Source of the DNA: Escherichia phage MRostami-2023b
Sequence record: OQ031492
DNA length: 64,000 nt
Reading direction: 5' to 3' (one strand)
Shown here: positions 851 to 18,743 of the stretch, piece by piece
How the letters are laid out: each line of letters opens with the position of its first letter
Numbering within the stretch: the first letter of the stretch is position 1
The notes under the pieces: model-generated
Told to the model about the DNA's origin: nothing
Seen by the model: only the letters and a program-made list of their open reading frames with translations
The model's database searches: none
Program-made: the position numbers and the translations under genes

Positions 851-2337
851 TGGACGAATATGGTTTGACAGATGCGGGATTTGTAATCCCAACTTTTGAC
901 GATGTTTTAAACAACTACATGACAGCAGTAAAAAACACATTTGGTGCAGATGCAGCCACTTCGGAAGATACTGTGATCGGACAACTGTTTAGAATAATTG
1001 CATACACAGATTACACATTGTGGGAAGGTATGCAAGGGGTCTATAATACTCAAACACTGGATGGTGCAGAAGGTATTTATCTTGACGAAATCTTTTCTAA
1101 ACGCGGTTTCTATCGAGCAGGGGCAGCAGCAAGTACAGGCTATGCGTATGTTAAGAGTAATAACAAAGCAGCTTGGACTTATGAGCTAGGCACAGATATT
1201 TACTTCAACTCTGATAGTGATATGAACTACTATGTTAGCACACCAACTATGTTGAATGCTAAGATTGCGGCTTATCAAATCTCTCGTGCTAATGCAACTG
1301 CTACAGGTGTTCCAAATATTACTTTTTATGCACAAAGTGCGGTAGACGGAGGGCTAAACAGTAAAACACTTGCACCTGGTTCTTCTACATTTATAACCGA
1401 TCTTGAAACTTTTATCAAGGCGAATTTAACAGAAGCTGATCGTAGTCTTGTATTTTCTGATTCAGGTAACTTATCAATTGGTTTTACTTCTTTAACCAGT
1501 GATACTCCAGTGGGACTAGTAACTCCTATCAAATTTTATGCCAGTGTTCCAGTTGGAACCAAATGGAGTGAAATTCCAGTAGTTGCAGCAGAGAAAGGAT
1601 ACAATCCTGTTGGTGTGGAGTCTATTACAGGGATATCTTCTACCTTTACAGGTTATCTTGACAGTGGTAACTTTTATTCATTTTCTCCTGGTCGGGATGT
1701 TGAGACAGACGCAGAATTCCGCTCTCGTTTCAATGACAACGTTGATGAAGCTAATGCGGGGACACGAGCAGCTATTGTGAAAGCACTACTGCTTACAGAT
1801 GGTGTTACCAAAGTGAAAATCTACGATAACCCCACATTACACGATCAAGAACATGCTCCAGCTATGACTTTCCAGACCATAGTTTATGGTGGCAGTGCAG
1901 AAGAAATTGCAAATGTTATCTATAAAACCAAACCAATCAACACTTTGACACACGGAACAACTAACATAACAGTTACAACAGAAGATGGAGGACAAGAAAT
2001 TATTCGCTTCTCTCCTGGTGCTTCTGCTATGTATTCTGTAAAACTTGTTTATCAAACTGTCAACGGAACAACTTTAAGTGGAACAGAAAAACAAAACATT
2101 GTAGAAGCTTTACAAAACCTGCAAGCTTACTTTGAATTAGGTTCTTCAGTAACGAACGATCAAATCAAAGGTGTTATTTATGCAGCACTTGCTTTTGGAC
2201 GCTTGACTTCTCTTCGTGTTTATGTTAAACTTAATACTGAGGATGACAGTAAATATACAGAGAATAATATAGTTCCTGCTTATAATGTTGTCCCTTCTTT
2301 TGACCTTGATAACATTTCTTACGAGTATGGAGTGTAA
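850..2337 (+). CDS. Baseplate J-like structural protein
   Basis: 495 aa; order J-like/I-like/fibre/assembly-chaperone mirrors P2-type baseplate-fibre cassette; start overlaps upstream stop. Confidence 0.45.
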   Translation: MDEYGLTDAGFVIPTFDDVLNNYMTAVKNTFGADAATSEDTVIGQLFRIIAYTDYTLWEGMQGVYNTQTLDGAEGIYLDEIFSKRGFYRAGAAASTGYAYVKSNNKAAWTYELGTDIYFNSDSDMNYYVSTPTMLNAKIAAYQISRANATATGVPNITFYAQSAVDGGLNSKTLAPGSSTFITDLETFIKANLTEADRSLVFSDSGNLSIGFTSLTSDTPVGLVTPIKFYASVPVGTKWSEIPVVAAEKGYNPVGVESITGISSTFTGYLDSGNFYSFSPGRDVETDAEFRSRFNDNVDEANAGTRAAIVKALLLTDGVTKVKIYDNPTLHDQEHAPAMTFQTIVYGGSAEEIANVIYKTKPINTLTHGTTNITVTTEDGGQEIIRFSPGASAMYSVKLVYQTVNGTTLSGTEKQNIVEALQNLQAYFELGSSVTNDQIKGVIYAALAFGRLTSLRVYVKLNTEDDSKYTENNIVPAYNVVPSFDLDNISYEYGV

Positions 2338-2339
2338 AA

Positions 2340-2969
2340 ATGGCAGTGAGTGTTGACCATGTAACAACTTGGGCCAGTATCAATGAAGATGTTAAAAACC
2401 TTCTGATTGAAGATTTTAAATCTTCTCCTAACATTGTCAAGCTCCTCTACATCGTATCCAGTGAAAAGCAAAAGATAGATCAGGCAATGATCTATCTTGC
2501 TAAACACCGCTTGATCTCTACAGCCACAGGCAAATACCTAGATATTCTAGGGGAAGAAATGGGGATCGAACGGAATGGCTCTGATGATGAAGAGTATAGA
2601 ACAATATTAAAAATCAGGGCTTACCGCGTAGCCTCATCGGGGACTCGTGGTGACATAATTGATATCTTCGCCCGTTTCACAGGAACAGAGCGTGAAACGC
2701 TTAATACTTACGTAGGTTTGAATAAAACCTTTGATGTGTTTTTCTACAACCTGTGTCTTCAATCTGATCAAGCTTTAGAGCAGTTGCTAAGTGTTTTCCC
2801 TATTATTAGTAGCTACCGTCTTGGAGCAAAAGCAGGATCAGCTTTTGGTTTTAGTTCTTATTATGCTACCAAACCGCCTCATGGTATTGGTGGTTTAGGT
2901 TCCCTGTACATGGAATCTACTGGGGATGAAACAGGACGCATGTGTACGCTTCTCAAGCAAATAGATTAA
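2340..2969 (+). CDS. Baseplate/tail protein (P2 gpI-like position)
   Basis: 209 aa, positional analogy, tightly coupled to flanking structural genes. Confidence 0.4.
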   Translation: MAVSVDHVTTWASINEDVKNLLIEDFKSSPNIVKLLYIVSSEKQKIDQAMIYLAKHRLISTATGKYLDILGEEMGIERNGSDDEEYRTILKIRAYRVASSGTRGDIIDIFARFTGTERETLNTYVGLNKTFDVFFYNLCLQSDQALEQLLSVFPIISSYRLGAKAGSAFGFSSYYATKPPHGIGGLGSLYMESTGDETGRMCTLLKQID

Positions 2970-2978
2970 GGAGTTTAA

Positions 2979-4040
2979 ATGGCGAAGCCAATATATTATC
3001 CTGACTGGGCTACACAAACTGTAACGCTCCCAGGAACTTTAAACACAAACAAAATTAGACCTAAAGAAACCATCCGCACAATTGGTATGGATTATGGTCA
3101 AATCATGACTTGCGAAGAAATGAACTGGATTCTTAATAATATCGGTTTATGGATTCGCTATTTGGTGGATGACTTTCTTCCAACTTTACCTAATACCTAC
3201 TTGCCTTTAGTGGGAACTAAGATTACAATGGCAGGTGATGCTACTGGTGAGGCTACTTGGAACGGTAACAAAGAAGTTACTTTATCTATCCAGGTTCAAG
3301 ATAACAGTCATAATCACTTGTCGGCAAACATTACAGATGCCACTAGTTCAACAGTAACACCAAACGTGTTGGTAAAACGTGATGCGGGTGGTGCTATTTA
3401 TGGTGGCGATGTTTATGTTAACGGTACTTCCACAACAGATCCTGCAACACTGTTCTTCAAAAACTTTGCAGGACAAACAAATGGTGAGATTTCTGCCGAG
3501 TATCAAAGCGGAGGTCAGCTTTACATCTATCGTAGAAATCCTAGCACAGGTAGTGTATCGGCAGGTATTCGTTTATATGACGCAGGTTATGTTCTAATAG
3601 ATAATCCAAGATCAAACAGTGGACAAGATACTTCTAACGGAAATGCTTTAGTTCGTTTAGATTATCTGAACTCTCGTTTGACTTCCCTTCAGAACACATT
3701 GCAGACGAATATTAACACTGTTCAAAACAACTTGAATAATGTTAACAACAACCTCTCTTCTCGTATAAACAATGTAGAAAGTAATCATCAAAGTCAGATT
3801 ACAAATAACTACAACTATGCTAACGGAACCTTTGTAAGAGATATTCGTTATACTAGCCAAGGTGTGTATTATCCACCAGGGAACGAGGTTTCTTGGACTT
3901 ATATCTGTTCTTCTGGTTATGTTCTTTCTGGTATTATCGTACAGGAAACAGGACGTAGCTCTGCGGATAACATCGGTGGGGTTTACTTCAAACGCCTCCA
4001 GCGCAACGTTAACGGAAACTGGTACGACATTGGAGGCTAA
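2979..4040 (+). CDS. Tail fibre protein with coiled-coil segment
   Basis: 353 aa; N/Q-rich heptad-like stretch LNSRLTSLQNTLQTNINTVQNNLNNVNNNL typical of fibre shafts. Confidence 0.5.
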   Translation: MAKPIYYPDWATQTVTLPGTLNTNKIRPKETIRTIGMDYGQIMTCEEMNWILNNIGLWIRYLVDDFLPTLPNTYLPLVGTKITMAGDATGEATWNGNKEVTLSIQVQDNSHNHLSANITDATSSTVTPNVLVKRDAGGAIYGGDVYVNGTSTTDPATLFFKNFAGQTNGEISAEYQSGGQLYIYRRNPSTGSVSAGIRLYDAGYVLIDNPRSNSGQDTSNGNALVRLDYLNSRLTSLQNTLQTNINTVQNNLNNVNNNLSSRINNVESNHQSQITNNYNYANGTFVRDIRYTSQGVYYPPGNEVSWTYICSSGYVLSGIIVQETGRSSADNIGGVYFKRLQRNVNGNWYDIGG

Positions 4041-4586
4041 ATGATATTTACAAACTTTAAAAAATATATTCCTGAAGACCCTGAACTAAAAGAATTGGTA
4101 GAAGCAGAGAACATTCTTTTTCTTCGTTGCGATCAAGGTTACGATTGGTATGATTTACGTAGCACAGAATTCAATAACGATAAAATGAAAGTCGTTTTTG
4201 ATGATCAAAATCGTATTGTGTTTTGGAATACTGATCCTACACTACTTTGCCCTGAAGATCTTTCTATAGCACAAGTAGACTTTAATATAGATACTTTTGA
4301 GGATATTAGGAACAAGGTTCTGGATTTAGAAACCTTAACTCTTAAGGATAAAGAGTATTCCCGTGAAGAGTTGATGACACAAGCTAGTGCAAAAATTCGC
4401 TCTTTACAAGAAACAGCGGTAGCACTTATAACACCTTTACAGTATGCTAAAGATTTAGAAATGGCTACTGAAGACGAATTAGCTTATCTTAAAAATCTTC
4501 AAGTTTATGTAGTTAAACTAAATCGTGTTCCGCTTCAAAAAGACTATCCTTACGCTATAGATTGGCCTACATTACCGACAGAATAA
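4041..4586 (+). CDS. Tail fibre assembly chaperone-like protein
   Basis: 181 aa immediately downstream of fibre gene (stop/start abutting); size and position typical. Confidence 0.4.
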   Translation: MIFTNFKKYIPEDPELKELVEAENILFLRCDQGYDWYDLRSTEFNNDKMKVVFDDQNRIVFWNTDPTLLCPEDLSIAQVDFNIDTFEDIRNKVLDLETLTLKDKEYSREELMTQASAKIRSLQETAVALITPLQYAKDLEMATEDELAYLKNLQVYVVKLNRVPLQKDYPYAIDWPTLPTE

Positions 4587-4595
4587 GGGATCACT

Positions 4596-4931
4596 ATGGA
4601 ATTTCAAGAAGCATGGGGACTTGCAAAGGATGCAATAATCCCTTTAATCGGAGTCATCTGGTTCTTTTTCAAACAAAAAATGGATAAATTCGGCTCTGAT
4701 CTTGAGGAAATGGAGGAGAAAAGTCGAGAGCTAGAGAAGAAGTTGGTCTTTGTTGAATCAACTTATGCAACTAAAGCCGAACTTACCCAGATGCTAAATC
4801 AAATTAACTCTACATTAATGGCAAATAATAACACCCTTGAGCAAAAAATTGAAAAGATTATGGACCTCAAGAATGCGACTATCCAAATGATGCTAGATGA
4901 CATAGTTAAACGTACACAGAATAAGGGGTAA
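4596..4931 (+). CDS. Hypothetical protein with N-terminal TM segment and coiled coil
   Basis: 111 aa ORF, hydrophobic N-terminus. Confidence 0.4.
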   Translation: MEFQEAWGLAKDAIIPLIGVIWFFFKQKMDKFGSDLEEMEEKSRELEKKLVFVESTYATKAELTQMLNQINSTLMANNNTLEQKIEKIMDLKNATIQMMLDDIVKRTQNKG

Positions 4932-4934
4932 TTA

Positions 4935-7900
4935 ATGGCAACATTCCCAACATATCCAGCAACGTCTCTCGAACAGGGCGTAGACCTGGTTATTTTCTCA
5001 TCTAACCAACTCCATGATGTTATTAATGGAAGTGCTACAGAGAGTATTGAAACAGAATCAGGGTTGATACCAACCCTGAGAAAAGCCCTTGTTGACAACT
5101 TTTTCTTTAAAAGCCCATTGGATTGGGCGCAAGGCACAAACGAAACAGTTTTTAACCAACTTCGTTATTTCCAGAATGGAGTATTGAGCGGTTATTACTA
5201 TGCCCCTAACGCTACATTGGTTAACCCAATCCCTATGCAAGGGACTCCAGTAGGAGATAACAACTGGGTATTGTGGGGACTGAAGACAGAACAATTGGCA
5301 ACAGAAGTCACCCCTTGGGTATATTCTGGTGCAACTGGTTATGAAACAGTAATTAGTCCTCCTTACATCTTTGATAGTGCTATTGTTACGATCAATGGTG
5401 TTATTCAGGTTCTGGGGGAAGCTTTCCGTATAGAAGATAGTAAGATCATCTTATCTGAACCTTTGGGACACGATCCTGCAACAGGACTGCCAAACAAACT
5501 TTTTGCTTATATTGGCAAAATCGTAGCTTCAGCAGATACAGATCCTAATCTAGAGAACCGTCTTGTTAGTTTAGAAACAAAAACGGAAGAACTAACAGAA
5601 AGCATGGATAAAGTCCCTCTGCAAACTATTGCTCGTAAGTATGGTTTGTTAGATGATGAGGTGGCTTACGCAACAGCAGGTCAATCGTTAACAGGGATTA
5701 AAGCTCTGTATGATCCGGTAGCACAGTCTTCCTACACATTACCTCCTAACATCACAGGAACTTTAACATCCTTATCTGTTTCTGGAGTAATGACTTATTC
5801 TGGAGGATCTGTAGACCTTTCTGCACTGGCTGTTGAGCGTGGACAGTTTGTTCATTTGCCTACAAGCTTTGGTAATAACGTAACTCTGACAGCTAAAAAT
5901 CAGACGATTGGACGTGGTGCTGGTCGTTATCGTTGGGCTGGAAGTTTACCAAAAAGTATTTTGGCCTCTGATACATTGGAGACAAGCGGAGGATTAGGTC
6001 CAAATGCATGGGTTCTGACTAATACAGAAGGACTGTTAACTCCTCGTGGTGGAACATACAACGATCTATTCGATGTTGTCTACTTGTCAGAATTTGCTAA
6101 CAATACAACTACCTATACCACACCAGAAGCAGCTTTCCAGGCGGCACTGTTAGCAGCAAAAGCTTCGAAAAGCAAGATTCTCGATGCTTACGGTTGCGAC
6201 ATGACTTTCACGACAAGCTCTTTTGATATTCAAGATATCACTTTGCGTGGTGGTGTGTTCCGTGGTCAACGCGACTATCGTGTGCAGAATGCTACAGTAG
6301 AAGGCACAACTTTCCGTAACTCTCGTGTTATGTATTGGGGTGGTGCTGTGCGCATGTTCGATTGTTTGTGGGACGGTGCTCCTCGCGCAGGTCAAGTTGG
6401 TAGCTTGGTATTCCAAGGCAACCCAATATCAGGTACTTTTGAAATTGATAATTGTACTTTTAAAAACGGGTTATATGGCATTCTTCAACAAGGAACAGGG
6501 GAACCAGTAACACGCGGTGTCTTCCGTAACCTTACCTTCATGGACATGCAAGGTGATGCAATAGAACTGAACGTCATCAATAAACATTATGACGATGGTT
6601 GTGTGATTGAGAATATTTACCTGTCTAATATCGATGGGACTAACGCTCCTATTCCTCTGTCCAACTGGGGTATCGGTATCGGTGTAGCTGGTAAAGGACC
6701 ATATGGTTACGGAATCCCTGATGATCAATATTGTAAGAACATTACAATTCGTAACGTTTTTGCAAAACGTTGTCGTCAGATTGTCCACGTAGAAGTTGGT
6801 CGTAATATCTCTATCGAAAACATTCATGGCGATCCAGATCAAACCGTATCTGTTGGGACAGGTTTGGCAACTGGCGCAGTTGTAATGTATGGAAGTAAAG
6901 ACTTTACGATTGATGGTGTTTATGGAGAGCCTAAAACAGACGGTAGCACACTTGCAAGTAATATCCGTATGATTTACTTGGAGTGGGGAACTAACGCAGT
7001 TCTGGATGAAGAGGGTAATCCGGTAGTTCCGGCACAGGGCAGACCTTCAAACCCATGCTTTAACTATTCTGTTCGTAACATTCACACCAAAACTGGGCGT
7101 GTTTTTGCGGGAGTTTCCGCTGGGCCAGGTTATGAAAACAGAGTTAGCTTTGAAAATATTCGTTGCGCTGCCTTGCAGTTGTTCGGTATAGCTTCTTGGC
7201 TTTCAATGTCTAACATCACCTGTAATATCTTCGATTGTGTTGGTCAACCTGAATCTGGTCCAGGGACATTTTATGATGGATTCTTCCGTAGAGAAAAATC
7301 TGTTCTTGAAATGGTTAACGTAAACTGTTACCCAGATGGCAAGACGATGGTTACTGGTCGTCCACAGTGGAGCCGTTGCCGTTACTCGGATATTCATCGT
7401 GTCAACTGTAATGTTGAAGCTAATATGTATACCAATATCGCAGGTGGTATTGGAGCTATTGTAGGGACAACGGGCAAAGTTTATTACTTAGAGCCTAATC
7501 CTAGTCGAAACATTGATGGAATGCATTTCCCAACAGGGAAAGAGTTTGACAAAGGGGATATGATAGTCAAGGCGGATAATACGTTCTTCCTTGTAACAAC
7601 AAGTGGGGCATATATTCCAGATATCCCAGCTTTCGGTATTCGAGCTACACAGGCAGGAGATACCTTCCTGACACAGAACTTGACTCCTAACGGGACAGCA
7701 ACAAATGCTTCTTGGTTGTATCATTACCCTCTGTCAGCAGGGACACGTATCCGTATTCCTGGCGCTGGTGTAGGTGGAGCAGATTTGGACACAGTTATTA
7801 CTCGTGCACCTTATCAAGATAATGATACGTGGACTAACCCAGTTAAAATAGACATTGCAGATCCAATTGTAACGCCTACAAGTGCTGGAGTTAGAATTAA

Positions 7901-7994: not shown

Positions 7995-8019
7995 AGAGGG
8001 GGGAATCCCCCTCTTCTTC
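7995..8019 (+). terminator. Hairpin terminator-like element
   Basis: gaggggg-gaat-ccccctc stem-loop followed by T-rich tract right after spike stop. Confidence 0.45.
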
Positions 8020-8050: not shown

Positions 8051-10075
8051 ATGAATTTAACAAGACCTAATAGTGCGATAGCCGATCTGGTAGAAGCTAC
8101 TTATCGAAAACGTCGCAGCTTTGAGGCAGGTTTTACATTACGTAATTCCCGTGAAGTTTTGCTGTTAGCAGCAGAAGGGAATTATTACCAATGGAAAGGA
8201 ACTTTTCCTAAAGTAGTTCCAGCAAACTCTACGCCAGCCACCACAGGTGGTATTTCTTCCCTTGCATGGCAAAATGTTGGGACCGCTGATGATATAGCAA
8301 TTATCAATGCCAAGTTTACGGCAATGCAGCAACAGATTGATGATCTGTCGGAAACAATACCTGAAGCTGGTAAATCGGCTTATCAGATCGCACTTGATAA
8401 TGGTTTTGTTGGAACAGAAGCACAATGGCTTGCTTCTTTGAAAGGGGATACTGGTGCTCAACTTAATATTAAAGGATCATTAGCAAACACTAGTGAACTA
8501 CCATCCACAGGTAACGTTGCAGGGGATGGTTATATCGTAGGTGATGTAATCTACGCTTGGGATGGTTCTGTTTGGAAACTTATTTCTTCTCTTGGGCCAG
8601 AAGGTAAATCAGCTTACGAGGTATGGTTGGCAGATGGTAATACAGGATCTGTTTATGATTTTCTTACCTCTATAAAAGGTGATAAAGGTGATGTTGGTCC
8701 TACAGGGCCACAGGGAGCACCTGGTGTTAACGCCAATGGTTTTGATTATCGTGGGGATTTGCCTTCTACAAGTAACTTACCACAACCAAACTCTGAAAAC
8801 GTAAGTCAAGCTTATTCTATCAATGGTAATCTTTATGTCTCTAATGGGACAGCTTGGGTCAACATGGGTAATATTGTTGGTCCTCAAGGTCCACAAGGTG
8901 AGGCAGGTAAAGACGGTCTTGATGGAACAGATGGAGATGAAGGGAAATCTGCATATCAAAGTTGGCTGGATGCTGGTAATGAAGGGACAGAAGTAGATTT
9001 TATTGCCTCACTTAAAGGTCCAAAAGGAGACAAAGGTGATCAAGGAGAGCGAGGTCCACAAGGTGAACTAGGTCCACAAGGACCAGTGGGTGCAACAGGA
9101 TCAGGCTTAGATATTATCGGGGTTCTGAACAGTGAAGCTGAACTTCCTCCTACCGGAGAAGTAGGTGATGCATATAAAATTAATAATGATTTATATGTTT
9201 GGGTTCAAGATGCTACGGAATGGATGAATGTTGGCAGTCTTGGAGGAACATCAATTACAGCTAAAGGTCATGTTCCGAACAGTGAAGCTCTCCCTGTTTA
9301 TAATAACTATGGCGATGCCTACTTAACTGAAGACACTAGTAATCTTTACATCTATACCTACGATCAAGACACCAATTCCGCATCTTTTGTTGACATGGGA
9401 AGTATTAAAGGCGACAAAGGTGAAAAAGGGGATAAAGGAGATAAGGGTGATCCTGGAACAAACGGAACCAACGGTACTGATGGGACCAACGGTAAGGACG
9501 GCGCACAGTGGTTTGTAGCAACAACTAATCCAGTTGCAGGAGACGGTGTTATCAATGATTACGCCTTCAATACTACCACTGGAGCAGTGTTTAAGAAAAC
9601 AGATTCTTCTACGTGGACGCTTATAGGCACTCTTCCTAGTATACCAGAAGCCCCTCAAGACGGCTTGACGTATGGTCGGTCTGATGGAAACTGGATCGAA
9701 ATATCAGGATCAGATCCTACGGAAGCTATAACACCAACTAGAGTTACAGCAGGTTTCATGGAACTTGAAACAACTACTGCCAACTCTGGAGCATCTTGGA
9801 CTCCTTCTGGAACTTCCAATATGTATGTTGTTACAGTGACTGATGCTCTGACAGTTGGAGCATGGCCTGGTGTCACTGGCTCTACTAAACCTAAAGCGTT
9901 TTCAGCAATGATTTATTTGATTCAAGATACAACGGGACACACGGTTACACTAGATGCGTCTTATGGAGCACTAAATGATACAGAAATAGCAACTACTGCT
10001 AACGCAGTAACAATTTTGCAATTAACGTATCCTGGTGTGGGTAATGTCGTGGACATGGTTGTTGTAACACGATAA
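8051..10075 (+). CDS. Tail fibre with collagen-like Gly-X-Y repeats
   Basis: 674 aa; several G-X-Y runs (GPQGPQGEAGKDGLDGTDGDEGK; GPKGDKGDQGERGPQGELGPQGPVG; KGDKGEKGDKGDKGDPGTNGTNGTDGTNGKDG). Confidence 0.6.
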   Translation: MNLTRPNSAIADLVEATYRKRRSFEAGFTLRNSREVLLLAAEGNYYQWKGTFPKVVPANSTPATTGGISSLAWQNVGTADDIAIINAKFTAMQQQIDDLSETIPEAGKSAYQIALDNGFVGTEAQWLASLKGDTGAQLNIKGSLANTSELPSTGNVAGDGYIVGDVIYAWDGSVWKLISSLGPEGKSAYEVWLADGNTGSVYDFLTSIKGDKGDVGPTGPQGAPGVNANGFDYRGDLPSTSNLPQPNSENVSQAYSINGNLYVSNGTAWVNMGNIVGPQGPQGEAGKDGLDGTDGDEGKSAYQSWLDAGNEGTEVDFIASLKGPKGDKGDQGERGPQGELGPQGPVGATGSGLDIIGVLNSEAELPPTGEVGDAYKINNDLYVWVQDATEWMNVGSLGGTSITAKGHVPNSEALPVYNNYGDAYLTEDTSNLYIYTYDQDTNSASFVDMGSIKGDKGEKGDKGDKGDPGTNGTNGTDGTNGKDGAQWFVATTNPVAGDGVINDYAFNTTTGAVFKKTDSSTWTLIGTLPSIPEAPQDGLTYGRSDGNWIEISGSDPTEAITPTRVTAGFMELETTTANSGASWTPSGTSNMYVVTVTDALTVGAWPGVTGSTKPKAFSAMIYLIQDTTGHTVTLDASYGALNDTEIATTANAVTILQLTYPGVGNVVDMVVVTR

Positions 10076-10078
10076 CAG

Positions 10079-10103
10079 AAGCCCCGAAAGGGGCTTTCTT
10101 TTT
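10079..10103 (+). terminator. Rho-independent terminator
   Basis: aagcccc-gaaa-ggggctt hairpin followed by tttctttttat. Confidence 0.75.
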
Positions 10104-10116
10104 ATGGAGGGTTTAA

Positions 10117-12789
10117 ATGTTTCCAATTCCAATATTTACTATTATGACCAGCACTGGTGTCGTTCCTCTGCCAGCAGGTATTGTTAAAAAAGTAATCACT
10201 TTAGATTACCCAGATAACGCTGGTAATTCTAACAGCAGTTTAGCAATTTTGCTTAATGATGGTAGATTGTTTACTCAAGGCGCAAACCTCTTTGGTGAGA
10301 TTGCAGATGGAACTCGTAGTGCACGATTCAATAATTTCTACTTAGCTTCTACTGTAGTAGCGGATGTGTTTACCGCAGATCGTTGTTTTGTTATTAAAAC
10401 TAACAGCGGGGGATGGCAATATTCAGGATTGACAGCAGGGTTGGTAGGATCTATAGCAGCAGGTGGTACGGATGCATGTGTAACTACTTGGACCAGCTTT
10501 CCATCTGTAATAACAGGGACTATCTCTTTAGCCAATCTTAAAGAGGTTAAGGGAGGATATAACAACACTCTCTGGTTAATGAATAGTGGTGTTCTTTATG
10601 GATCAGGTCAAAACACAGTAGGCAGTTTAGGTGCAAGTACTACTAACGAAGTTTCTACTCCTCGTCAGATAACAAGTTCAGCAGTTGCTTTTGATGCAGG
10701 TTACAACCAATGCTCTTATGTCAACAATGTGGGAACCTTGCGTGTTTGTGGAGCTAGTAAAGGTTTAGCAGGTAATAATAACACAACAACCGCTTTTGTC
10801 AATGCCACGATATCCACTACTGAAACAGTGTATGTCAAAGATTACATCAATACAGTTTCCCAGACAATAGTTGTAGGAGATACCTCCGGTGGCGCGGGTA
10901 CAGTAAACTACTTATATGTTAGATCTAATACAGAAACAACCTACACTAAACTGGACACCTTTGCAGCAGGTTTCTCAACATGGAAATTTCCACCAAGCCG
11001 CCACTCTTTTTTCGTTGGGATCAATAATTCCTTGTGGGCTATTGGTAAGAACTACACTGCAAACTTAGGTTTGGGATATGATTCTGCGAGCGGAGATCCA
11101 CTCCAAGTGGGAAAACCAGTTAAACCTGAAGGAGTGGGTTCCTGGGATATAAACAAGCTCACAAGCGTTCATACGTTGAATATGGATATTACTAACCAAT
11201 TAGGTTATCAAGGAACCTTTTTCGTTTATAACGGGGATATGTATTATTCCGGTATTTGGAAAGATGGGAAAGCCTCGTATCTGTTCAATAGTGGTCTAAA
11301 CTATAATAAATTCACACCAATAGCAAGCTCCGTGATTACGGGGGATGTTCTGGCAACTGGCTTAACTACAGATTCTTTAGGAATTTGTATTGTAGGTGGA
11401 ACTAAACAGTTGACACATTCTGTTAGCCCAGAAGGAGGTAAACTTTTCAATATTAAATACACTTCTTCTGCCCCTGCAAACATGACAATATCATCTACTG
11501 GTTTAATGACTTTCCATGCAGAAGGTGGTTTTGATGCAGGTATGACAGCCTTAAACGCTGAAGGAACAACTTTATCAGATACCTCTGGAGGATATGCTTC
11601 AACATTGAGTGTTTACACCCCTAGCTTATCTGCGATGGATGTAGGAACAACACAAACAATGGTAGCAGAAATAACGCCAACAGGAGCAGCAAGCTTACCT
11701 GGTATGGTTGTTGAGTATACAACTACAGATCCTAATGTTGCTACAGTAGATCCTACAACTGGTGTAATAACTGGTGTTGGTGATGGTGGTTGTAGAATTG
11801 GTTGCACAGCTACATATCAAGGTGTTGTTACCGCTTCTGATAGTTCTTATTTAACGGTGAACGCTGTTGCGGGAAAGGAGTTAGCTCCATCTCCGAGTAG
11901 TAGTTTAACGGTTCTAAACGGATATTTCAACCACTCGGCAGATGGGGCAATTACGTTCCCAATTTTATCGGGTACTGTCACACCAGCTAACTTTGTAGTT
12001 AAGGTGGATGACGTTGTAATACCTTCAAATAAAGTAATATTTAGAAATAAAGCTTTCTCTACAGTGGATAGTTATCCAGCAGGAGAATATAGACTGGCTA
12101 TTGAATTTGCAAGTGCTTCAGTAGTGAATAGTGTTGATGTGTCTATGGAAGCAAATCCAGATCTTTTAGAATTATGGGGCGGCAACAGAATTGGTTATTC
12201 TACAAGCCCAGCCTCACAATTCTTAAAAGGTTGTGCTAACTTAAGACGAATAACTTCTGATTGTTTTAGTAACACATCTTACACCGGAACATCTATAAGT
12301 GGTATCTTCTCTGGCTGTACAAGTTTGACAGCTATCCCTGAAGGATTATTCAGTGATGCTTTATTTCCTTCAATGACAACAATGTCAAGCACGTTTGAAG
12401 GTTGTACATCTTTAACATCTATTCCTTCAGATTTATTTAAAAATCTATCAAAAGTTACAAGATATTCTTACACCTTTAAAGATTGCACCTCTCTTGCAGA
12501 AGTTCCAGCAGGAATGTTTGATAATATTCCAACGAAAGTGACCTCTTTAACAGCTACATTCCAAGGTTGTTTAGCACTTACAGATTTTAATAAAATCTTT
12601 AATGACAACCCAGGGTTAACTGTTTGTGGTAAACGTGGAGCATTATCTTCTTTCTTTAGTGGATGCACAAATCTTACAGGAACAGGAACAACATTAACAA
12701 ATACATTAGGCGGAGTAGCTAATAGTTACCTATTCAGGTATTGCACAAAACTTTCTGATTATAACAATATTCCTTCGGGTTATAAATAA
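10117..12789 (+). CDS. Tail fibre/adhesin with Ig-like region and C-terminal BspA-type leucine-rich repeats
   Basis: 890 aa; C-terminal repeats GCTSLTAIPEGLF / GCTSLTSIPSDLF / DCTSLAEVPAGMF / GCLALTDF / GCTNLTG. Confidence 0.5.
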   Translation: MFPIPIFTIMTSTGVVPLPAGIVKKVITLDYPDNAGNSNSSLAILLNDGRLFTQGANLFGEIADGTRSARFNNFYLASTVVADVFTADRCFVIKTNSGGWQYSGLTAGLVGSIAAGGTDACVTTWTSFPSVITGTISLANLKEVKGGYNNTLWLMNSGVLYGSGQNTVGSLGASTTNEVSTPRQITSSAVAFDAGYNQCSYVNNVGTLRVCGASKGLAGNNNTTTAFVNATISTTETVYVKDYINTVSQTIVVGDTSGGAGTVNYLYVRSNTETTYTKLDTFAAGFSTWKFPPSRHSFFVGINNSLWAIGKNYTANLGLGYDSASGDPLQVGKPVKPEGVGSWDINKLTSVHTLNMDITNQLGYQGTFFVYNGDMYYSGIWKDGKASYLFNSGLNYNKFTPIASSVITGDVLATGLTTDSLGICIVGGTKQLTHSVSPEGGKLFNIKYTSSAPANMTISSTGLMTFHAEGGFDAGMTALNAEGTTLSDTSGGYASTLSVYTPSLSAMDVGTTQTMVAEITPTGAASLPGMVVEYTTTDPNVATVDPTTGVITGVGDGGCRIGCTATYQGVVTASDSSYLTVNAVAGKELAPSPSSSLTVLNGYFNHSADGAITFPILSGTVTPANFVVKVDDVVIPSNKVIFRNKAFSTVDSYPAGEYRLAIEFASASVVNSVDVSMEANPDLLELWGGNRIGYSTSPASQFLKGCANLRRITSDCFSNTSYTGTSISGIFSGCTSLTAIPEGLFSDALFPSMTTMSSTFEGCTSLTSIPSDLFKNLSKVTRYSYTFKDCTSLAEVPAGMFDNIPTKVTSLTATFQGCLALTDFNKIFNDNPGLTVCGKRGALSSFFSGCTNLTGTGTTLTNTLGGVANSYLFRYCTKLSDYNNIPSGYK

Positions 12790-12791
12790 GA

Positions 12792-12819
12792 AAAGGAGCC
12801 ATTTGGCTCCTTTCTTTTA
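12792..12819. terminator. Bidirectional rho-independent terminator between convergent gene blocks
   Basis: aaaggagcc-attt-ggctccttt hairpin flanked by A-run and T-run; genes converge here. Confidence 0.75.
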
Positions 12820-15410: not shown

Positions 15411-18400
15411 CTAATGGCAACTGGCCCAGGAATTTCCCACGTCATATCCAGCAGTAAGCTGAACATTAAGATTGTAAAATTCTCCAGCCTTAGTAACAGC
15501 TAAAGCAGCAAGTTCACCTGCCCGACTATAAGCTGTAAACCATCCACCTTTGGGAGATTCATGAATGTTAGCCCAAATTTGCCCTGTCTCTTTTTCCTTA
15601 TTATGCTTCCATTCTTCGACTTTAGCAAGGCATTCTTTATCAATTTTCTTTTGTTCTTCAGGATCGTCTACTTTCTTCCAACCTAATGATTCAGGTGAAA
15701 ACCATTTGAATTCTACAAGGTTACGAGAAACTTCAAGCTGGGCTTCATCGTGGTATGCAATCATTTGTTGCACGAAGTCTTTATTCTTCCAGTCATCTTT
15801 AAAGAAGTCAACACTTAGCCCTTCTTCTTCGATCATGTCATCATAAATAACCATTGCACGTTTAGCACAGATAACCCCACCGCTTTGGAACAGAGAGTTA
15901 AGAATCGCGTGAGCAGAACGAGTAGGAACCTTACGACCGTCAATACCCAAAACATATTGTTTACCAGTCTTAACCCAAAAATCGTTTAAACGTTCTTTAA
16001 GACGCGCCAATGGGAATGCAGCTTCCCAGAAAGCATCAAACACCAATTGACCTGTAAACTTATCGCTACCAATTGTTTTAGCAACCTTGTCGGCTTGTGC
16101 ACCATAGGTAATACCATACTTAACAGATTTAGCAGGACTACGTTCAAATTTACGTCCAATAGTTTCAGTGATACGTTTTGCCATCATTGTGTGAACATCG
16201 TTAGGTTTCTCTAACAACAGAGCGTTACAATATTCGTGTGGCTCCGGCTCGTACCGCCAACAGTTNNNNNNNNNNNNNNNNNNNNNNNNNNNNNNNNNNN
16301 NNNNNNNNNNNNNNNNNNNNNNNNNNNNNNNNNNNNNNNNNNNNNNNNNNNNNNNNNNNNNNNNNNNNNNNNNNNNNNNNNNNNNNNNNNNNNNNNNNNN
16401 NNNNNNNNNNNNNNNNNNNNNNNNNNNNNNNNNNNNNNNNNNNNNNNNNNNNNNNNNNNNNNNNNNNNNNNNNNNNNNNNNNNNNNNNNNNNNNNNNNNN
16501 NNNNNNNNNNNNNNNNNNNNNNNNNNNNNNNNNNNNNNNNNNNNNNNNNNNNNNNNNNNNNNNNNNNNNNNNNNNNNNNNNNNNNNNNNNNNNNNNNNNN
16601 NNNNNNNNNNNNNNNNNNNNNNNNNNNNNNNNNNNNNNNNNNNNNNNNNNNNNNNNNNNNNNNNNNNNNNNNNNNNNNNNNNNNNNNNNNNNNNNNNNNN
16701 NNNNNNNNNNNNNNNNNNNNNNNNNNNNNNNNNNNNNNNNNNNNNNNNNNNNNNNNNNNNNNNNNNNNNNNNNNNNNNNNNNNNNNNNNNNNNNNNNNNN
16801 NNNNNNNNNNNNNNNNNNNNNNNNNNNNNNNNNNNNNNNNNNNNNNNNNNNNNNNNNNNNNNNNNNNNNNNNNNNNNNNNNNNNNNNNNNNNNNNNNNNN
16901 NNNNNNNNNNNNNNNNNNNNNNNNNNNNNNNNNNNNNNNNNNNNNNNNNNNNNNNNNNNNNNNNNNNNNNNNNNNNNNNNNNNNNNATCGCCAAACAGTA
17001 GTGTGATTCAATTTTTGCTTCCAAAGAGTCGAAGTCGTAGCCGATCTGGAAGTATTTAGGAACTTCTACACCAAACAAGTTACGCATCTCCCATCCAAAC
17101 AAAGATGTGACACGAGGAATATTAGCTACAGATCTATGCTTCATACGAGAGGTTGCAGCATCACATGTAGCGGCTGGGGTAGGAATACGCCCATCCGCCC
17201 TTACTGCGGCTAAGAAACCTTTGTCATATTCTTGATCTTCCTCATCTTCTTCCCAATCAGCACCACCGCCTAAAATAGAGTTTCTACGATGCTTATACGT
17301 TAAGTATTCTACAATCTGTGTAGCATAAGGGAATTTCTCACCTAAAGCTTGCAGGTTAGGACAGATTTCTTTTTCCTGACCTTTGGTAAAACATGGGTTA
17401 GTCAATACTTTAAGACCGCGACCCTTACCTTTTGCTATACGCTCTTGAATCTTCCTTTCCAAGGTTTCCGGTGTGCACTCCAGATGATCACAACGGTCCT
17501 GACAAAAATTAGAAGATAGAGTTTGCTCAACGTAAGCTCGAATACCTTTCTGAAGTTCTTCCTCGCTCTTTTTAATCTTGGTGCCAGATTTAAGAGTCAA
17601 GTCTTTATCTTTATATTCAGACGGTACCCAACCTAATCCTACAAGCCAGTTTTTAATATGGGTTGTATCGTTCAATGTTGCAGGGATGTTAGGATCACAC
17701 AGAGGCTCATCTGCTGCAACTGGCAGTTTCCACTCTTTCCCCAACATAACTAACCACCAATCGCCATCCCTCTCTTCCAAATGACCATCATGTTTCTTAG
17801 CAAAATTGATCATATGGTTAGTTGGCTCTAAGTTCTTTTTAATTTGCAACTTAGGTGGAATAAAAGCTTTAAGATAACCTTTTGTTGCTGGTTTAGGTGG
17901 CAAAATAGGCTCAACGAGTAAACGAAGACGCTCCATTTCTGCATCCAAAAAAGCAAGGTTCTCTTCTGCTTGTTTCATGTTAAAAGCAAACCCACGGTGT
18001 TCCTGGCGTGTAATAATGTCTGCTACACGTTGTTCAAGTTCAAATGGACCTTCCCATTTATCATAATCACCCCATTCTTCCATAAGGTAATTATATACGC
18101 TCGTATTGGCTTTGTTGTCATAGATACAGTAATAAAGCATATCCGCAGCAAAAGTCTTAAATCGATCTTCTTCTGGAATCTCTTTACGGAAATCTATTTT
18201 TACATCACCACCTGCTTTTCGAGAAAGTGCTGCCAAGCTATGTCCTGATTTGCCCTCAATCTTTCGATCTGGGTTTAACACTTTACTCAAAATCAAGGAG
18301 TCAATAAGTTTTACCTTATTTTTGCCCCACGTATTATATTTAACACTGTAATCTAATCCATAAAACAGTTTTGTAGCCAACCAGTCGTAGTTGATACCGT

Positions 18401-18743
18401 TGTGAGCCACAGCCATTTCAACCAGATATTCAGGCTTGTCTTTAAAATAACCTTCATGATTAATAAAATCTGGGAAATCTTTTAGTTGAAAATGTGTGTA
18501 ATCTTGCGCCACATACTCTTTAAGAACATATGTGTATTTACCATCTGACTCTTCATAAGGACGCCCATCAAAGATGTATTTAGGGCCATCGTGGAAAGCT
18601 ATTATTTCTCCTGTTTCATGGTTCTCTAAGACAATACAGTGCATTTGAAATGTGTCTTTGAGACGATAAGGACTAGCTAAATAATCAATAGTGTCATTAT
18701 TCAACAATCCGTTTGCTTCAATATCCCATGTAAACTTACTCAC
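15411..18743 (-). CDS. DNA polymerase, family A (PolI/T7-like) with N-terminal 3'-5' exonuclease; interior masked by 721 N
   Basis: Exo I motif WDIEANGL; motif B RSPAKSVKYGITYGAQ; motif C HDEAQLEV; 1110 codons including N run 16266-16986. Confidence 0.85.
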   Translation of the reverse strand: MSKFTWDIEANGLLNNDTIDYLASPYRLKDTFQMHCIVLENHETGEIIAFHDGPKYIFDGRPYEESDGKYTYVLKEYVAQDYTHFQLKDFPDFINHEGYFKDKPEYLVEMAVAHNGINYDWLATKLFYGLDYSVKYNTWGKNKVKLIDSLILSKVLNPDRKIEGKSGHSLAALSRKAGGDVKIDFRKEIPEEDRFKTFAADMLYYCIYDNKANTSVYNYLMEEWGDYDKWEGPFELEQRVADIITRQEHRGFAFNMKQAEENLAFLDAEMERLRLLVEPILPPKPATKGYLKAFIPPKLQIKKNLEPTNHMINFAKKHDGHLEERDGDWWLVMLGKEWKLPVAADEPLCDPNIPATLNDTTHIKNWLVGLGWVPSEYKDKDLTLKSGTKIKKSEEELQKGIRAYVEQTLSSNFCQDRCDHLECTPETLERKIQERIAKGKGRGLKVLTNPCFTKGQEKEICPNLQALGEKFPYATQIVEYLTYKHRRNSILGGGADWEEDEEDQEYDKGFLAAVRADGRIPTPAATCDAATSRMKHRSVANIPRVTSLFGWEMRNLFGVEVPKYFQIGYDFDSLEAKIESHYCLAXXXXXXXXXXXXXXXXXXXXXXXXXXXXXXXXXXXXXXXXXXXXXXXXXXXXXXXXXXXXXXXXXXXXXXXXXXXXXXXXXXXXXXXXXXXXXXXXXXXXXXXXXXXXXXXXXXXXXXXXXXXXXXXXXXXXXXXXXXXXXXXXXXXXXXXXXXXXXXXXXXXXXXXXXXXXXXXXXXXXXXXXXXXXXXXXXXXXXXXXXXXXXXXXXXXXXXXXXXXXXXXXXXXXXXXXXXXXXXXXXNCWRYEPEPHEYCNALLLEKPNDVHTMMAKRITETIGRKFERSPAKSVKYGITYGAQADKVAKTIGSDKFTGQLVFDAFWEAAFPLARLKERLNDFWVKTGKQYVLGIDGRKVPTRSAHAILNSLFQSGGVICAKRAMVIYDDMIEEEGLSVDFFKDDWKNKDFVQQMIAYHDEAQLEVSRNLVEFKWFSPESLGWKKVDDPEEQKKIDKECLAKVEEWKHNKEKETGQIWANIHESPKGGWFTAYSRAGELAALAVTKAGEFYNLNVQLTAGYDVGNSWASCH
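16266..16986. other. Masked sequence (721 N) inside DNA polymerase gene
   Basis: N run. Confidence 0.9.

Follow-up and report, generated by a model that had tools for sequence, protein, structure and literature searches.

Collagen-like and leucine-rich repeats in two adjacent tail genes of a Phapecoctavirus, one with an exchangeable C-terminal cassette

What do two adjacent genes contribute to a phage tail-fibre cluster when one encodes collagen-like Gly-X-Y runs and the other C-terminal leucine-rich repeats (LRRs), and is their combination out of the ordinary? The question is raised by a stretch of 64,000 nucleotides from Escherichia phage MRostami-2023b (sequence record OQ031492; hereafter the window), for which an initial annotation, based on the sequence alone, described both products as fibres, considered the LRR type more typical of bacterial surface adhesins, and deduced a broad or unusual host range from the number of distinct receptor-binding architectures. 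Both open reading frames, here called ORF A and ORF B, lie on the plus strand at exactly the coordinates of that annotation (Table 1), with good Shine-Dalgarno sequences upstream of their start codons (GGAG for the ATG at 8051 and GGAGG for the ATG at 10117), and the region 8051–12789 contains no masked N bases. Elsewhere in the window, a segment of low GC content within the DNA polymerase gene was considered as an insertion; this reading was rejected, since the segment consists of masked N.

A known tail-fibre gene cluster

The region is 99.5% identical at the nucleotide level to phages dw-ec and ETEC-TG, at least 80% of it is covered in 67 database records, and ESCO5, REC and Mt1B1_P17 are 97–99% identical across 25 kb. 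The gene order in Mt1B1_P17 matches, and the corresponding RefSeq products are ‘tail fiber protein’ for ORF A and ‘tail protein’ for ORF B. Nucleotide identity and gene order relative to reference genomes place the region at the 3′ end of the tail-fibre genes of a Phapecoctavirus, i.e., a phAPEC8-like E. coli myophage of the subfamily Stephanstirmvirinae. The clusters of this group (phAPEC8, ESCO5, Mt1B1_P17, AV125) are 93–99.5% identical to the region, differ from it in nothing material, and share with it the order short fibre, chaperone, lipoprotein, colanidase spike, collagen-like fibre and 890-aa tail protein. The locus is accordingly of an ordinary coliphage kind that has already been sequenced, and in which both genes already carry tail fibre or tail protein annotations. 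Within this cluster, the data are probably best explained by ORF A being a lateral fibre and ORF B a modular host-recognition protein with an exchangeable tip.

Table 1 Features of the locus, with positions in the window
Feature	Position	Strand	Remark
Short fibre and its chaperone	2979–4586		Upstream in the locus
Colanidase-like β-helix tailspike, 1017 aa	4935..7988	+	Upstream neighbour of ORF A
ORF A, collagen-like, most likely lateral tail fibre, 674 aa, ‘TfpM2’-type	8051..10075	+	RefSeq relatives: ‘tail fiber protein’
Tail_spike_N (TSP1/Gp66-type, TD1-like) N-terminal docking domain, ORF A aa 12–77	8084..8281	+	
Collagen-like run 1, aa 210–227	8678..8731	+	6 Gly-X-Y triplets
Collagen-like run 2, aa 277–300	8879..8950	+	8 Gly-X-Y triplets
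Collagen-like run 3, aa 323–352	9017..9106	+	10 Gly-X-Y triplets
Collagen-like run 4, aa 454–486	9410..9508	+	11 Gly-X-Y triplets; best Pfam Collagen match
Foldon-like trimerisation motif IPEAPQDGLTYGRSDGNWIEIS, ORF A aa 529–553	9635..9709	+	Follows last collagen run and Y5 node
ORF A tip domain, aa 559–674	9725..10072	+	Kept in fibres with otherwise unrelated shafts
Terminator-like hairpin, ORF A/ORF B gap	10078..10097	+	8-bp stem with 5 GC pairs, then T-run
ORF B, modular tail protein, 890 aa, ‘TfpM1’	10117..12789	+	RefSeq relatives: ‘tail protein’
RCC1-like seven-bladed β-propeller, ORF B aa ~7–400	10135..11316	+	
Two Big_2 Ig-like domains, ORF B aa ~415–583	11359..11865	+	
Exchangeable DNA cassette	11868..12810	+	Codons 585–890, stop codon, spacer to terminator
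Cassette part 1, small β-sandwich, ORF B aa ~598–677	11908..12147	+	AlphaFold2 models
Cassette part 2, LRR solenoid of DUF285/PARCEL-BspA type, aa 702–890	12220..12786	+	Six repeats and cap
Bidirectional terminator-like hairpin	12792..12813	.	9–10-bp stem, T-runs on both strands

The tailspike upstream of ORF A is matched by phrog_6117 (‘colanic acid degradation’) at 1e-282 and weakly by Beta_helix; additional modules are present at its N-terminus, a Tail_spike_N domain lies inside the protein (Pfam, aa 302–361, 2.4e-9), and the precomputed annotation of an identical protein lists Phage_phiTE_241_N, Tail_spike_N and WcaM. Together with the short fibre and its chaperone, ORF A and ORF B, this spike bears out the proposal that the locus holds several different receptor-binding architectures. 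The idea that many receptor binders lead to a broad host range is not new, however, and has been published for the subfamily: several co-expressed fibres and spikes are on record for the group, phi92, with its ‘multivalent adsorption apparatus’, has been described as a ‘nanosized Swiss army knife’, a broad host range has been published for the phapecoctaviruses AV125 and AV126, and Phapecoctaviruses are among the coliphages of broadest host range in cocktails for therapy and biocontrol (PMC10844046). Known phages match the window at 99.5% identity, so the host range should be nothing unusual for the group.

ORF A and its collagen-like runs

ORF A is matched over its whole length by phrog_15437 (‘tail fiber protein’, E 0). 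It is 93–99% identical to its counterparts in Phapecoctavirus and 59% identical to those in phi92-like phages, where the homologues are annotated ‘lateral tail fiber protein with type I collagen domain’; most likely, it forms a trimeric lateral tail fibre. The several Gly-X-Y runs that had been proposed are four in number. They add up to 35 triplets, compared with 0.7 on average and never more than 9 when the protein was shuffled 2000 times, and Pfam Collagen (PF01391) recognizes them with an E value of 4e-12 and 46.2 bits (cut-off 27.2). The runs hold 10 prolines, and 30 of their 70 X and Y positions are charged; such a charged-rich and proline-poor composition is typical of prokaryotic collagen-like proteins. 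ORF A shares this composition with Scl1/Scl2, Lcl and BclA, as well as uninterrupted Gly-X-Y runs and, here putative, a trimerisation element adjoining the triple helix, but its runs are short (6–11 triplets) and split by globular nodes. In contrast to cell-wall-anchored adhesins, ORF A is a phage fibre; NCBIfam adhesin models reach 61 bits with a cut-off of 400.

The element downstream of the collagen-like runs is identical to the foldon of T4 fibritin at 13 of 22 residues, with a local score of 76 compared with 25.7 ± 3.8 (maximum 50) in 1000 shuffles. In the PDB, phmmer retrieves the fibritin chimera 1v1h at 0.003, and foldon-tagged spikes at 0.007. A search of ORF A with Pfam Fibritin_C (PF07921) gave no match; the homologous fibre of phage L007 scores 20.4 bits (5.6e-4) with a cut-off of 21. 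The T4 foldon is also used in engineered (GPP)n-foldon constructs, and the adjacency of the motif to the Gly-X-Y runs, together with the trimeric state of homologous fibres, suggests that ORF A trimerises and that the runs form triple helices.

The N-terminal domain of ORF A belongs to Tail_spike_N (PF18668; 1.8e-19, 70 bits, cut-off 25), and its sequence matches in the PDB are the N-terminal domains of CBA120 TSP1, TSP3 and TSP4 and of other tailspikes. In the branched tailspike complexes of CBA120 and G7C, domains of this type (Tail_spike_N/TD1) dock on gp10-like XD domains; the present locus has the domain at the start of ORF A and in an internal segment of the neighbouring spike. In those complexes, however, the tailspikes are β-helix depolymerases, whereas ORF A has a collagen-like shaft and a small tip. 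In CBA120, TD1 domains dock onto XD3 domains (PMC11414711), and in phi92 one fibre branches off the base of another (PMC13450770). By analogy with the CBA120 tailspikes, the first ~80 residues of ORF A would anchor it to a second fibre or to a spike within a branched adsorption complex, and the tailspike encoded immediately upstream is a possible docking partner. The initial annotation mentioned neither this docking domain nor the T4-foldon-like motif.

In the proposed shaft, three ‘GKSAY’ nodes and five small β nodes would alternate with the four short triple-helix segments, the foldon-like motif would register the three chains, and a tip domain of ~115 residues would close the fibre. The tip is matched by the long tail fibre of phage phiTE (PDB 9cuy_g, residues 679–790) at 1.1e-7, and the C-terminal ends of rV5 gp28, GAP31_231 and the KE22 fibre share 49–60% identity with it.

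The modular build of ORF B and its cassette

Over its whole length, ORF B is matched by phrog_11922 (‘tail protein’, E 0), a family in the PHROG category ‘tail’. The designation of ORF B as a fibre does not hold: its AlphaFold2 full-length model (pLDDT 85.9) consists of an RCC1-like propeller, two Big_2 domains, a β-sandwich and an LRR solenoid, and no recognisable baseplate or fibre attachment domain or trimerisation element was found in the protein. The N-terminal seven-bladed propeller can be assigned to the RCC1-like class, with only 13–17% sequence identity to RCC1, UVR8, RPGR, the HERC2 RLD and BLIP-II. There is no reason for expecting nucleotide-exchange activity, and the propeller is probably a platform for binding or docking. 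Big_2 (PF02368) matches two stretches (6.9e-10 and 2.2e-12; 39–47 bits, cut-off 22.8), and this region shares 57–65% identity with the N-terminal part of the third fibre in phi92-like phages, which, unlike the present locus, lack a propeller-bearing protein. Because the Seunavirus homologues of ORF B are composed of propeller and Big_2 domains alone, without a C-terminal cassette, the scaffold has a function of its own.

The C-terminal repeats, initially described as BspA-type LRRs, are upheld as LRRs of the BspA/TpLRR class. Six repeats start at aa 702, 731, 760, 787, 815 and 847, followed by a terminal cap at aa 873; their period is 26–32 residues, compared with 25 in the canonical TpLRR type (PMC2996958). 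Structure prediction, which had been proposed as a check, gave a right-handed solenoid with a parallel β-sheet on its concave face (AlphaFold2; pLDDT 90.5, pTM 0.88). Profile searches, likewise proposed, clearly supported Collagen and Big_2, the latter in two copies, but the LRRs only weakly: LRR_5 (PF13306) did not match the isolated C-terminus even at E ≤ 10, and DUF285 (PF03382) and TIGR02167/PARCEL scored 13.3–16.6 bits (cut-off 25) and 17.4 bits (cut-off 30), respectively. Since direct Pfam and NCBIfam support is weak, LRR family membership is based on homologues and fold. A search with the C-terminal 306 residues found 203 homologues; DUF285, LRR_5 and LRR_8 occur among homologues, and PF03382 is present in the precomputed annotation of more divergent ORF B orthologues with the same architecture.

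Compared with other DUF285/PARCEL/BspA (TpLRR-type) proteins, ORF B has six repeats only, and these sit on a phage tail protein rather than on a bacterial lipoprotein or secreted adhesin. Contrary to the proposed adhesin character, this LRR class is not foreign to phages. A protein of the P2-like Klebsiella prophage Reipivirus ST16-OXA48phi5.4 combines Tail_P2_I, Big_2 and LRR_5/DUF285; as in ORF B, Big_2 is followed by a C-terminal LRR region of the same class (32–33% identity over ORF B aa 705–886), but its N-terminus is a gpI baseplate domain instead of an RCC1-like propeller, and it has many more repeats. Jumbo phages and tail proteins of cyanophages match as well.

Comparison with ESCO37 delimits the cassette that contains the repeats: the two sequences share 97.7% nucleotide identity up to nt 11867, nothing aligns over 11868–12810, and identity resumes at 98.9% from nt 12811; at the protein level, aa 1–584 are 98% identical and the remainder is unrelated. 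The right-hand edge coincides with the bidirectional hairpin between ORF B and the convergent gene for single-stranded-DNA-binding protein (SSB). Of the two alleles, the one with the LRR is present in 35 phage records and the one of phAPEC8 type in about 39, such that roughly half of the related phages, including the type phage phAPEC8, bear an unrelated cassette on ORF B; this alternative cassette matches no Pfam family. At any level of divergence, the scaffold is found with either of these two cassettes, with a different C-terminus, or with nothing attached. ORF B thereby combines a conserved N-terminus with a recombining, variable C-terminus, the classical signature of receptor-binding proteins. 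The initial annotation pointed out neither the sharp boundaries of the LRR region nor its nature as a swappable cassette.

Most likely, ORF B acts as a second host-recognition protein that uses the conserved scaffold as its base, and its specificity module would be the C-terminal cassette of β-sandwich and LRR solenoid. Recombination would replace the stretch from a fixed point behind ‘SSYLTVNAV’ (aa 584) to the terminator downstream, and this exchange would leave sibling phages with a common scaffold that ends in one of two unrelated tips, the LRR tip or that of phAPEC8 type. Monomeric LRR tips are unusual among myophage fibres, which counts against the model, as do the lack of a recognisable attachment domain or trimerisation element in ORF B, the Seunavirus homologues without cassette and the sub-threshold LRR profile scores. 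A putative deletion variant, the 396-aa fusion protein P0001 (junction 8272|11821), retains exactly the docking domain and the LRR cassette, in frame; the junction has scattered microhomology only and no long shared word, and from the sequence a real in-frame deletion is more likely than an assembly collapse.

Arrangement of the two proteins and host factors

Our searches of the literature found no virion proteomics or microscopy that locates ORF A or ORF B on a Phapecoctavirus particle: a ‘proteomics’ paper on an O177 phage is in silico only, and neither gp27 nor gp28 is named in the supplements on rV5. Instead of acting as two separate proteins, ORF A and ORF B might constitute one composite fibre, in which the ORF B propeller is seated on the conserved tip of ORF A, and a collagen-like stalk presents ORF B as the distal receptor binder. 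We regard this as a tenable, if less probable, arrangement. The tip (aa 567–674) is the sole part of ORF A that is shared with the otherwise unrelated fibres rV5 gp28, GAP31_231 and that of KE22, and in all three phages the next gene starts with an ORF B-like N-terminus (39–45% identity). Furthermore, the related phage L007 has a different fibre tip and also lacks the propeller (its 216-aa ORF matches no Pfam family and is not similar to ORF B), and ORF B is devoid of an attachment domain of its own. Adjacency may, however, be inherited synteny among related myophages, and the phi92-like phage EmilieFrey keeps the ORF A-type tip although its third protein starts directly at Big_2, without a propeller.

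A more specific proposal, which we consider doubtful, is that the LRR cassette is a protein- or glycan-recognising tip that sets a secondary host requirement (yhaH for the LRR allele, a flagellar one for the phAPEC8-type), with ORF B riding on the tip of the collagen-like fibre via its propeller. Phages ΦWec188 and ΦWec190 need yhaH; ΦWec179, 181 and 186, whose tail-fibre proteins were reported to be identical within the group, need flhD; and all five depend on the waaT-dependent LPS core (PMC12548472). ΦWec188 and ΦWec190 bear the LRR allele (91% identity), and ΦWec179 bears the phAPEC8-type allele (98%). TfpL, a second fibre gene, also differs between the two groups, so that the correlation between cassette and host factor is confounded. 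YhaH is an inner-membrane protein and therefore unlikely to be the direct ligand. If true, the proposal would make this the first coliphage receptor binder of LRR type with a defined function, and would provide a ready swap point for host-range engineering.

Irrespective of ligand, the practical value lies in an exact domain map and a natural recombination junction at aa 584/585 (nt 11868–12810), with two unrelated tips on one scaffold and a testable tie to the published yhaH and flhD resistance data. The general picture of such phages is unchanged; what is refined is the annotation of genes labelled only ‘tail protein’ or ‘hypothetical protein’.

It is improbable that ORF B, rather than being a primary receptor binder, is a non-virion protein or an accessory adhesin or decoration, with Ig-like and LRR domains providing a weak hold on surfaces, mucus or cell-surface glycans. 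The gene closes the tail-fibre operon, shares its strand and has a terminator on either side, and its full-length PHROG belongs to the ‘tail’ category. Host-range determinants typically show such shuffling of cassettes at a fixed junction, here with tips that also occur in siphophage minor tail proteins and in a P2 gpI fusion, and the deletion variant retains precisely the docking domain and the LRR cassette in frame. Finally, the notion that both repeats merely reflect composition, with low complexity rich in glycine in ORF A and a CxxL pattern that arose by chance, without LRR fold, in ORF B, could appeal to the missing LRR_5 match and the sub-threshold DUF285 and PARCEL scores, but is so improbable as to be negligible, and for either repeat chance is refuted, by the triplet count in ORF A relative to its shuffles and by the homologues and fold of ORF B.

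The last two genes of the tail-fibre cluster

The region 8051–12789 is 99.5% identical over its full length to Escherichia phages dw-ec and ETEC-TG, and 93–99% identical to about 60 other records, nearly all Phapecoctavirus (subfamily Stephanstirmvirinae); the first 25 kb of the window stand in the same relationship to this genus. The RefSeq genome of Mt1B1_P17 carries on one strand, in order, genes for baseplate wedge, baseplate protein, tail fibre, fibre assembly protein, lipoprotein, 'colanic acid degradation' spike, 'tail fiber protein' and 'tail protein', after which convergent replication genes follow. This gene order, together with the Phapecoctavirus identity, identifies the collagen-like fibre gene (ORF A) and the modular tail protein gene (ORF B) as the last pair in a well-known tail-fibre cluster. 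The phage, its genes and the general interpretation are already present in the literature and databases: the varied fibres and spikes have been viewed as a 'Swiss army knife' conferring broad host range (PMC13450770, PMC10844046), and the annotation of the BASEL phi92-like phages names the collagen domain explicitly. The present additions are at annotation level, i.e., an RCC1-like propeller, a leucine-rich repeat (LRR) fold of the DUF285/BspA class, a foldon-like motif, exact boundaries of an exchangeable cassette, and a roughly 1:1 split between its alleles. The initial annotation, a collagen-like fibre beside an LRR fibre implying a broad or unusual host range, is confirmed as an observation and partly supported as an interpretation.

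Features of the fibre locus and masked runs in the window
Feature	Position	Strand	Remarks
Terminator-like hairpin	7998–8010		3' of the colanidase spike gene
ORF A	8051–10075	+	674 aa; GGAG eight bases 5' of ATG
Terminator-like hairpin	10078–10097		3' of ORF A
ORF B	10117–12789	+	890 aa; GGAGG six bases 5' of ATG
Bidirectional terminator hairpin	12792–12813		3' of ORF B; the cassette's right-hand recombination boundary falls here
N run starts	15373, 16266, 29523, 36237, 45184, 47877, 52283, 55502, 58894, 59147, 61552		

ORF A contains uninterrupted Gly-X-Y runs of 6, 8, 10 and 11 triplets, 35 in total, compared with 0.7 on average and at most 9 in the shuffled protein, and Pfam Collagen matches at 46.2 bits (cut-off 27.2), which bears out the several runs first reported for this fibre. 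Of the 70 X and Y positions, 10 are proline and 30 are charged, a composition usual for prokaryotic collagen-like proteins; the NCBIfam models Scl1, Scl2 and Lcl match in the collagen runs only, far below their cut-offs. Interspersed among the four runs of the modular shaft are three nodes of the 'GKSAYxxxL' type and five small ones of the 'LPxxGxxGDxYxVxxxLYxW' type. Residues 12–77, passed over initially as were the shaft nodes, the foldon-like motif and the tip match, are a Tail_spike_N domain (70 bits), the N-terminal module also of CBA120 TSP1/TSP3 and G7C gp66. After the last collagen run and node, IPEAPQDGLTYGRSDGNWIEIS is identical to the T4 fibritin foldon at 13 of 22 positions (alignment score 76 versus 25.7 ± 3.8 for shuffles), its PDB matches being a fibritin chimera and foldon-tagged vaccine spikes; the related fibre of a metagenomic phage (L007) matches Pfam Fibritin_C at 5.6e-4. 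The C-terminal ~115 residues match the end of the phage phiTE long tail fibre, a part unresolved in the phiTE structure.

The L007 locus (1392–6076 on the 128-kb Logan contig SRR17660019_125) is a more distant relative with a different gene arrangement: a collagen-like fibre of 830 aa with another tip and the Fibritin_C-like motif, a 216-aa ORF without relatives, and a 494-aa protein with two Big_2 domains, a beta-sandwich and LRRs, whose cassette is 55% identical and which lacks the propeller. The 869-aa tail fibre PHROG 4549 matches through its positions 153–261 the colanidase spike N-terminus (spike residues 9–114; window 4935–5280) and through its C-terminus the ORF A tip (residues 558–674; window 9725–10072), so that some phages hold in one fibre two ends that are split here between adjacent genes. 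All three large fibre/spike genes are followed by a terminator-like hairpin, only the final one noted as bidirectional.

Domains of ORF B and exchange of its C-terminal cassette

ORF B comprises a propeller, two Big_2 domains, a beta-sandwich and the LRR, in this order. Its N-terminal 400 residues, another feature absent from the initial annotation, are an RCC1-like seven-bladed propeller (phrog_4219, 6.5e-33; Pfam RCC1 barely over cut-off). As a string of globular domains without a trimerisation element, the protein is no fibre in the usual sense, as it had been called. The C-terminal repeats start at residues 702, 731, 760, 787, 815 and 847 and are closed by a cap at 873; they have a period of 26–32 residues and the consensus F-x-G-C-T-S-L-T-x-I-P-x-x-L-F. 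Profile searches uphold Big_2, clear in two copies, but LRR_5 gave no match in ORF B, DUF285 reached only 13–17 bits against its threshold of 25, and TIGR02167, the model of the PARCEL repeat, only 17.4 bits against 30. The proposed repeats are supported by 203 homologues retrieved with the last 306 residues, and by a confident AlphaFold2 model built on 62 of these (pLDDT 90.5, pTM 0.88), in which a small beta-sandwich is followed by a solenoid. The LRR holds up as a genuine member of the TpLRR/BspA-DUF285 class, though a divergent one by curated profile thresholds.

The ESCO37 protein is 98% identical to ORF B over residues 1–584 and unrelated beyond; in nucleotide sequence, the two phages are 97.7% identical up to nt 11867, have no similarity across 11868–12810 and are 98.9% identical from 12811, a position inside the bidirectional hairpin. 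The LRR cassette occurs at ≥90% identity in 35 phage records and the alternative cassette, that of the type phage phAPEC8, in about 39. The latter also terminates the third fibre of phi92-like phages and has distant relatives among siphophage minor tail proteins and cyanophage baseplate proteins. Among 41 database homologues, the propeller–Big_2 scaffold carries the LRR cassette (49–99% identical), very divergent DUF285-positive LRRs, the alternative cassette (30–99%) or another C-terminus, and in Seunavirus no C-terminal cassette at all; scaffold identity does not predict the C-terminus type. Judged from sequence, such exchange on a conserved scaffold is typical of a host-specificity domain carried by a structural part that stays constant.

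Such LRR tips are no foreign element among phages. One protein of a P2-like Klebsiella prophage combines Tail_P2_I, Big_2, LRR_5 and DUF285, each scoring above cut-off, and shares 32% identity with ORF B residues 705–886; other phage matches to the LRR are in jumbo phages, a Synechococcus phage tail protein and a Butyrivibrio phage, and DUF285/PARCEL or LRR domains were previously noted in phages pir03 and Goslar. The P2-like prophage is ST16-OXA48phi5.4 (Klebsiella phage, Reipivirus; L003:3523–6549); its fusion protein joins the baseplate protein gpI to Big_2 and a long array of BspA-type LRRs, in which LRR_5, DUF285 and LRR_8 all score above cut-off, and the same gene is present in over a dozen prophage-derived records from Klebsiella.

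A phage 98.3% identical (L006:6001–7191, Logan contig SRR10359460_34) has an in-frame 3.5-kb deletion with its junction at window 8272/11821, joining ORF A residues 1–73 (docking domain) to ORF B from about residue 568, i.e., the end of Big_2, the beta-sandwich and the LRR; the 396-aa product, P0001, falls in an 11-sequence cluster. The junction has scattered microhomology only, which makes an assembly collapse on a shared word unlikely.

Proposed working of the two proteins and host factors

Beyond the folds, repeats, junctions and allele distribution observed here, ORF A would trimerise, its shaft zipped by the foldon-like motif and collagen runs, with the tip probably facing the cell surface. 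Its TD1-like head may dock on another member of the fibre cluster, the obvious candidate being the adjacent colanidase spike, which has a long N-terminal extension. In Ackermannviridae, a TD1-type domain of one spike docks on the XD3 domain of another (PMC11414711), and in phi92 one fibre was seen to branch from the base of another (PMC13450770). ORF B is a predicted virion protein whose cassette may bind a host surface component; no proteomic data on it were found in the literature, and its receptor-binding role is putative.

As a sub-hypothesis, ORF B might be seated on the ORF A tip. This tip is the only segment that ORF A has in common with the otherwise unrelated fibres rV5 gp28, GAP31_231 and that of KE22, in whose genomes the gene after the fibre begins with an ORF B-like N-terminus, and in L007 tip and propeller are replaced together. 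However, phi92-like phages are an exception to this pairing, and inherited synteny is a sufficient alternative explanation for it. The gene pair itself, a fibre with an ORF A-type tip (9725–10072) always followed by an ORF B-type propeller start (10117–10700), spans Phapecoctavirus, Vequintavirus and Seunavirus (L005, rV5 gp28/gp27; L008, GAP31_231/232; L009, KE22), the remainder of both proteins differing (rV5 gp27 has ~1878 aa).

By host factor, the ΦWec phages, which were described in 2025, form two groups: ΦWec188 and ΦWec190 are non-infectious on a yhaH mutant, and ΦWec179, 181 and 186, whose tail-fibre proteins are reported identical, on an flhD mutant (PMC12548472). All five require the waaT-dependent LPS core, infection being restored on complementation (PMC12548472, PMC12695924). 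The ORF B homologue was named 'TfpM1 (890 or 891 aa)' and its C-terminal variation remarked, in a paper where the terms LRR, RCC1 and collagen do not occur; TfpL, another fibre gene, also differs between the groups (PMC12695924). In ΦWec188 and ΦWec190 the cassette is of the LRR type (91% identity), and in ΦWec179 it is the alternative one (98%). The correlation of cassette allele with yhaH or flhD dependence is a lead only, because of the difference in TfpL and because YhaH is an inner-membrane protein.

Masked sequence and a polymerase insert

The window contains 11 masked N runs of 9–909 nt, none within 8051–12789, which account for the GC dips at 16–18 kb and 52–54 kb in the composition profile and for artificial long ORFs translated as X. 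A 'low-GC insertion' in the DNA polymerase gene (15411–18743, minus strand) was rejected, being a masked run of 721 N (16266–16986). At this position L006 has real sequence (10603–11460, minus strand), with an in-frame insert of ~243 aa that gave no match in a Pfam search, is missing from the 865-aa polymerase of Mt1B1_P17 and has intein-like ends (…SHY/CVPMDAQALTRKGWV … CITITGN/CWRY…).
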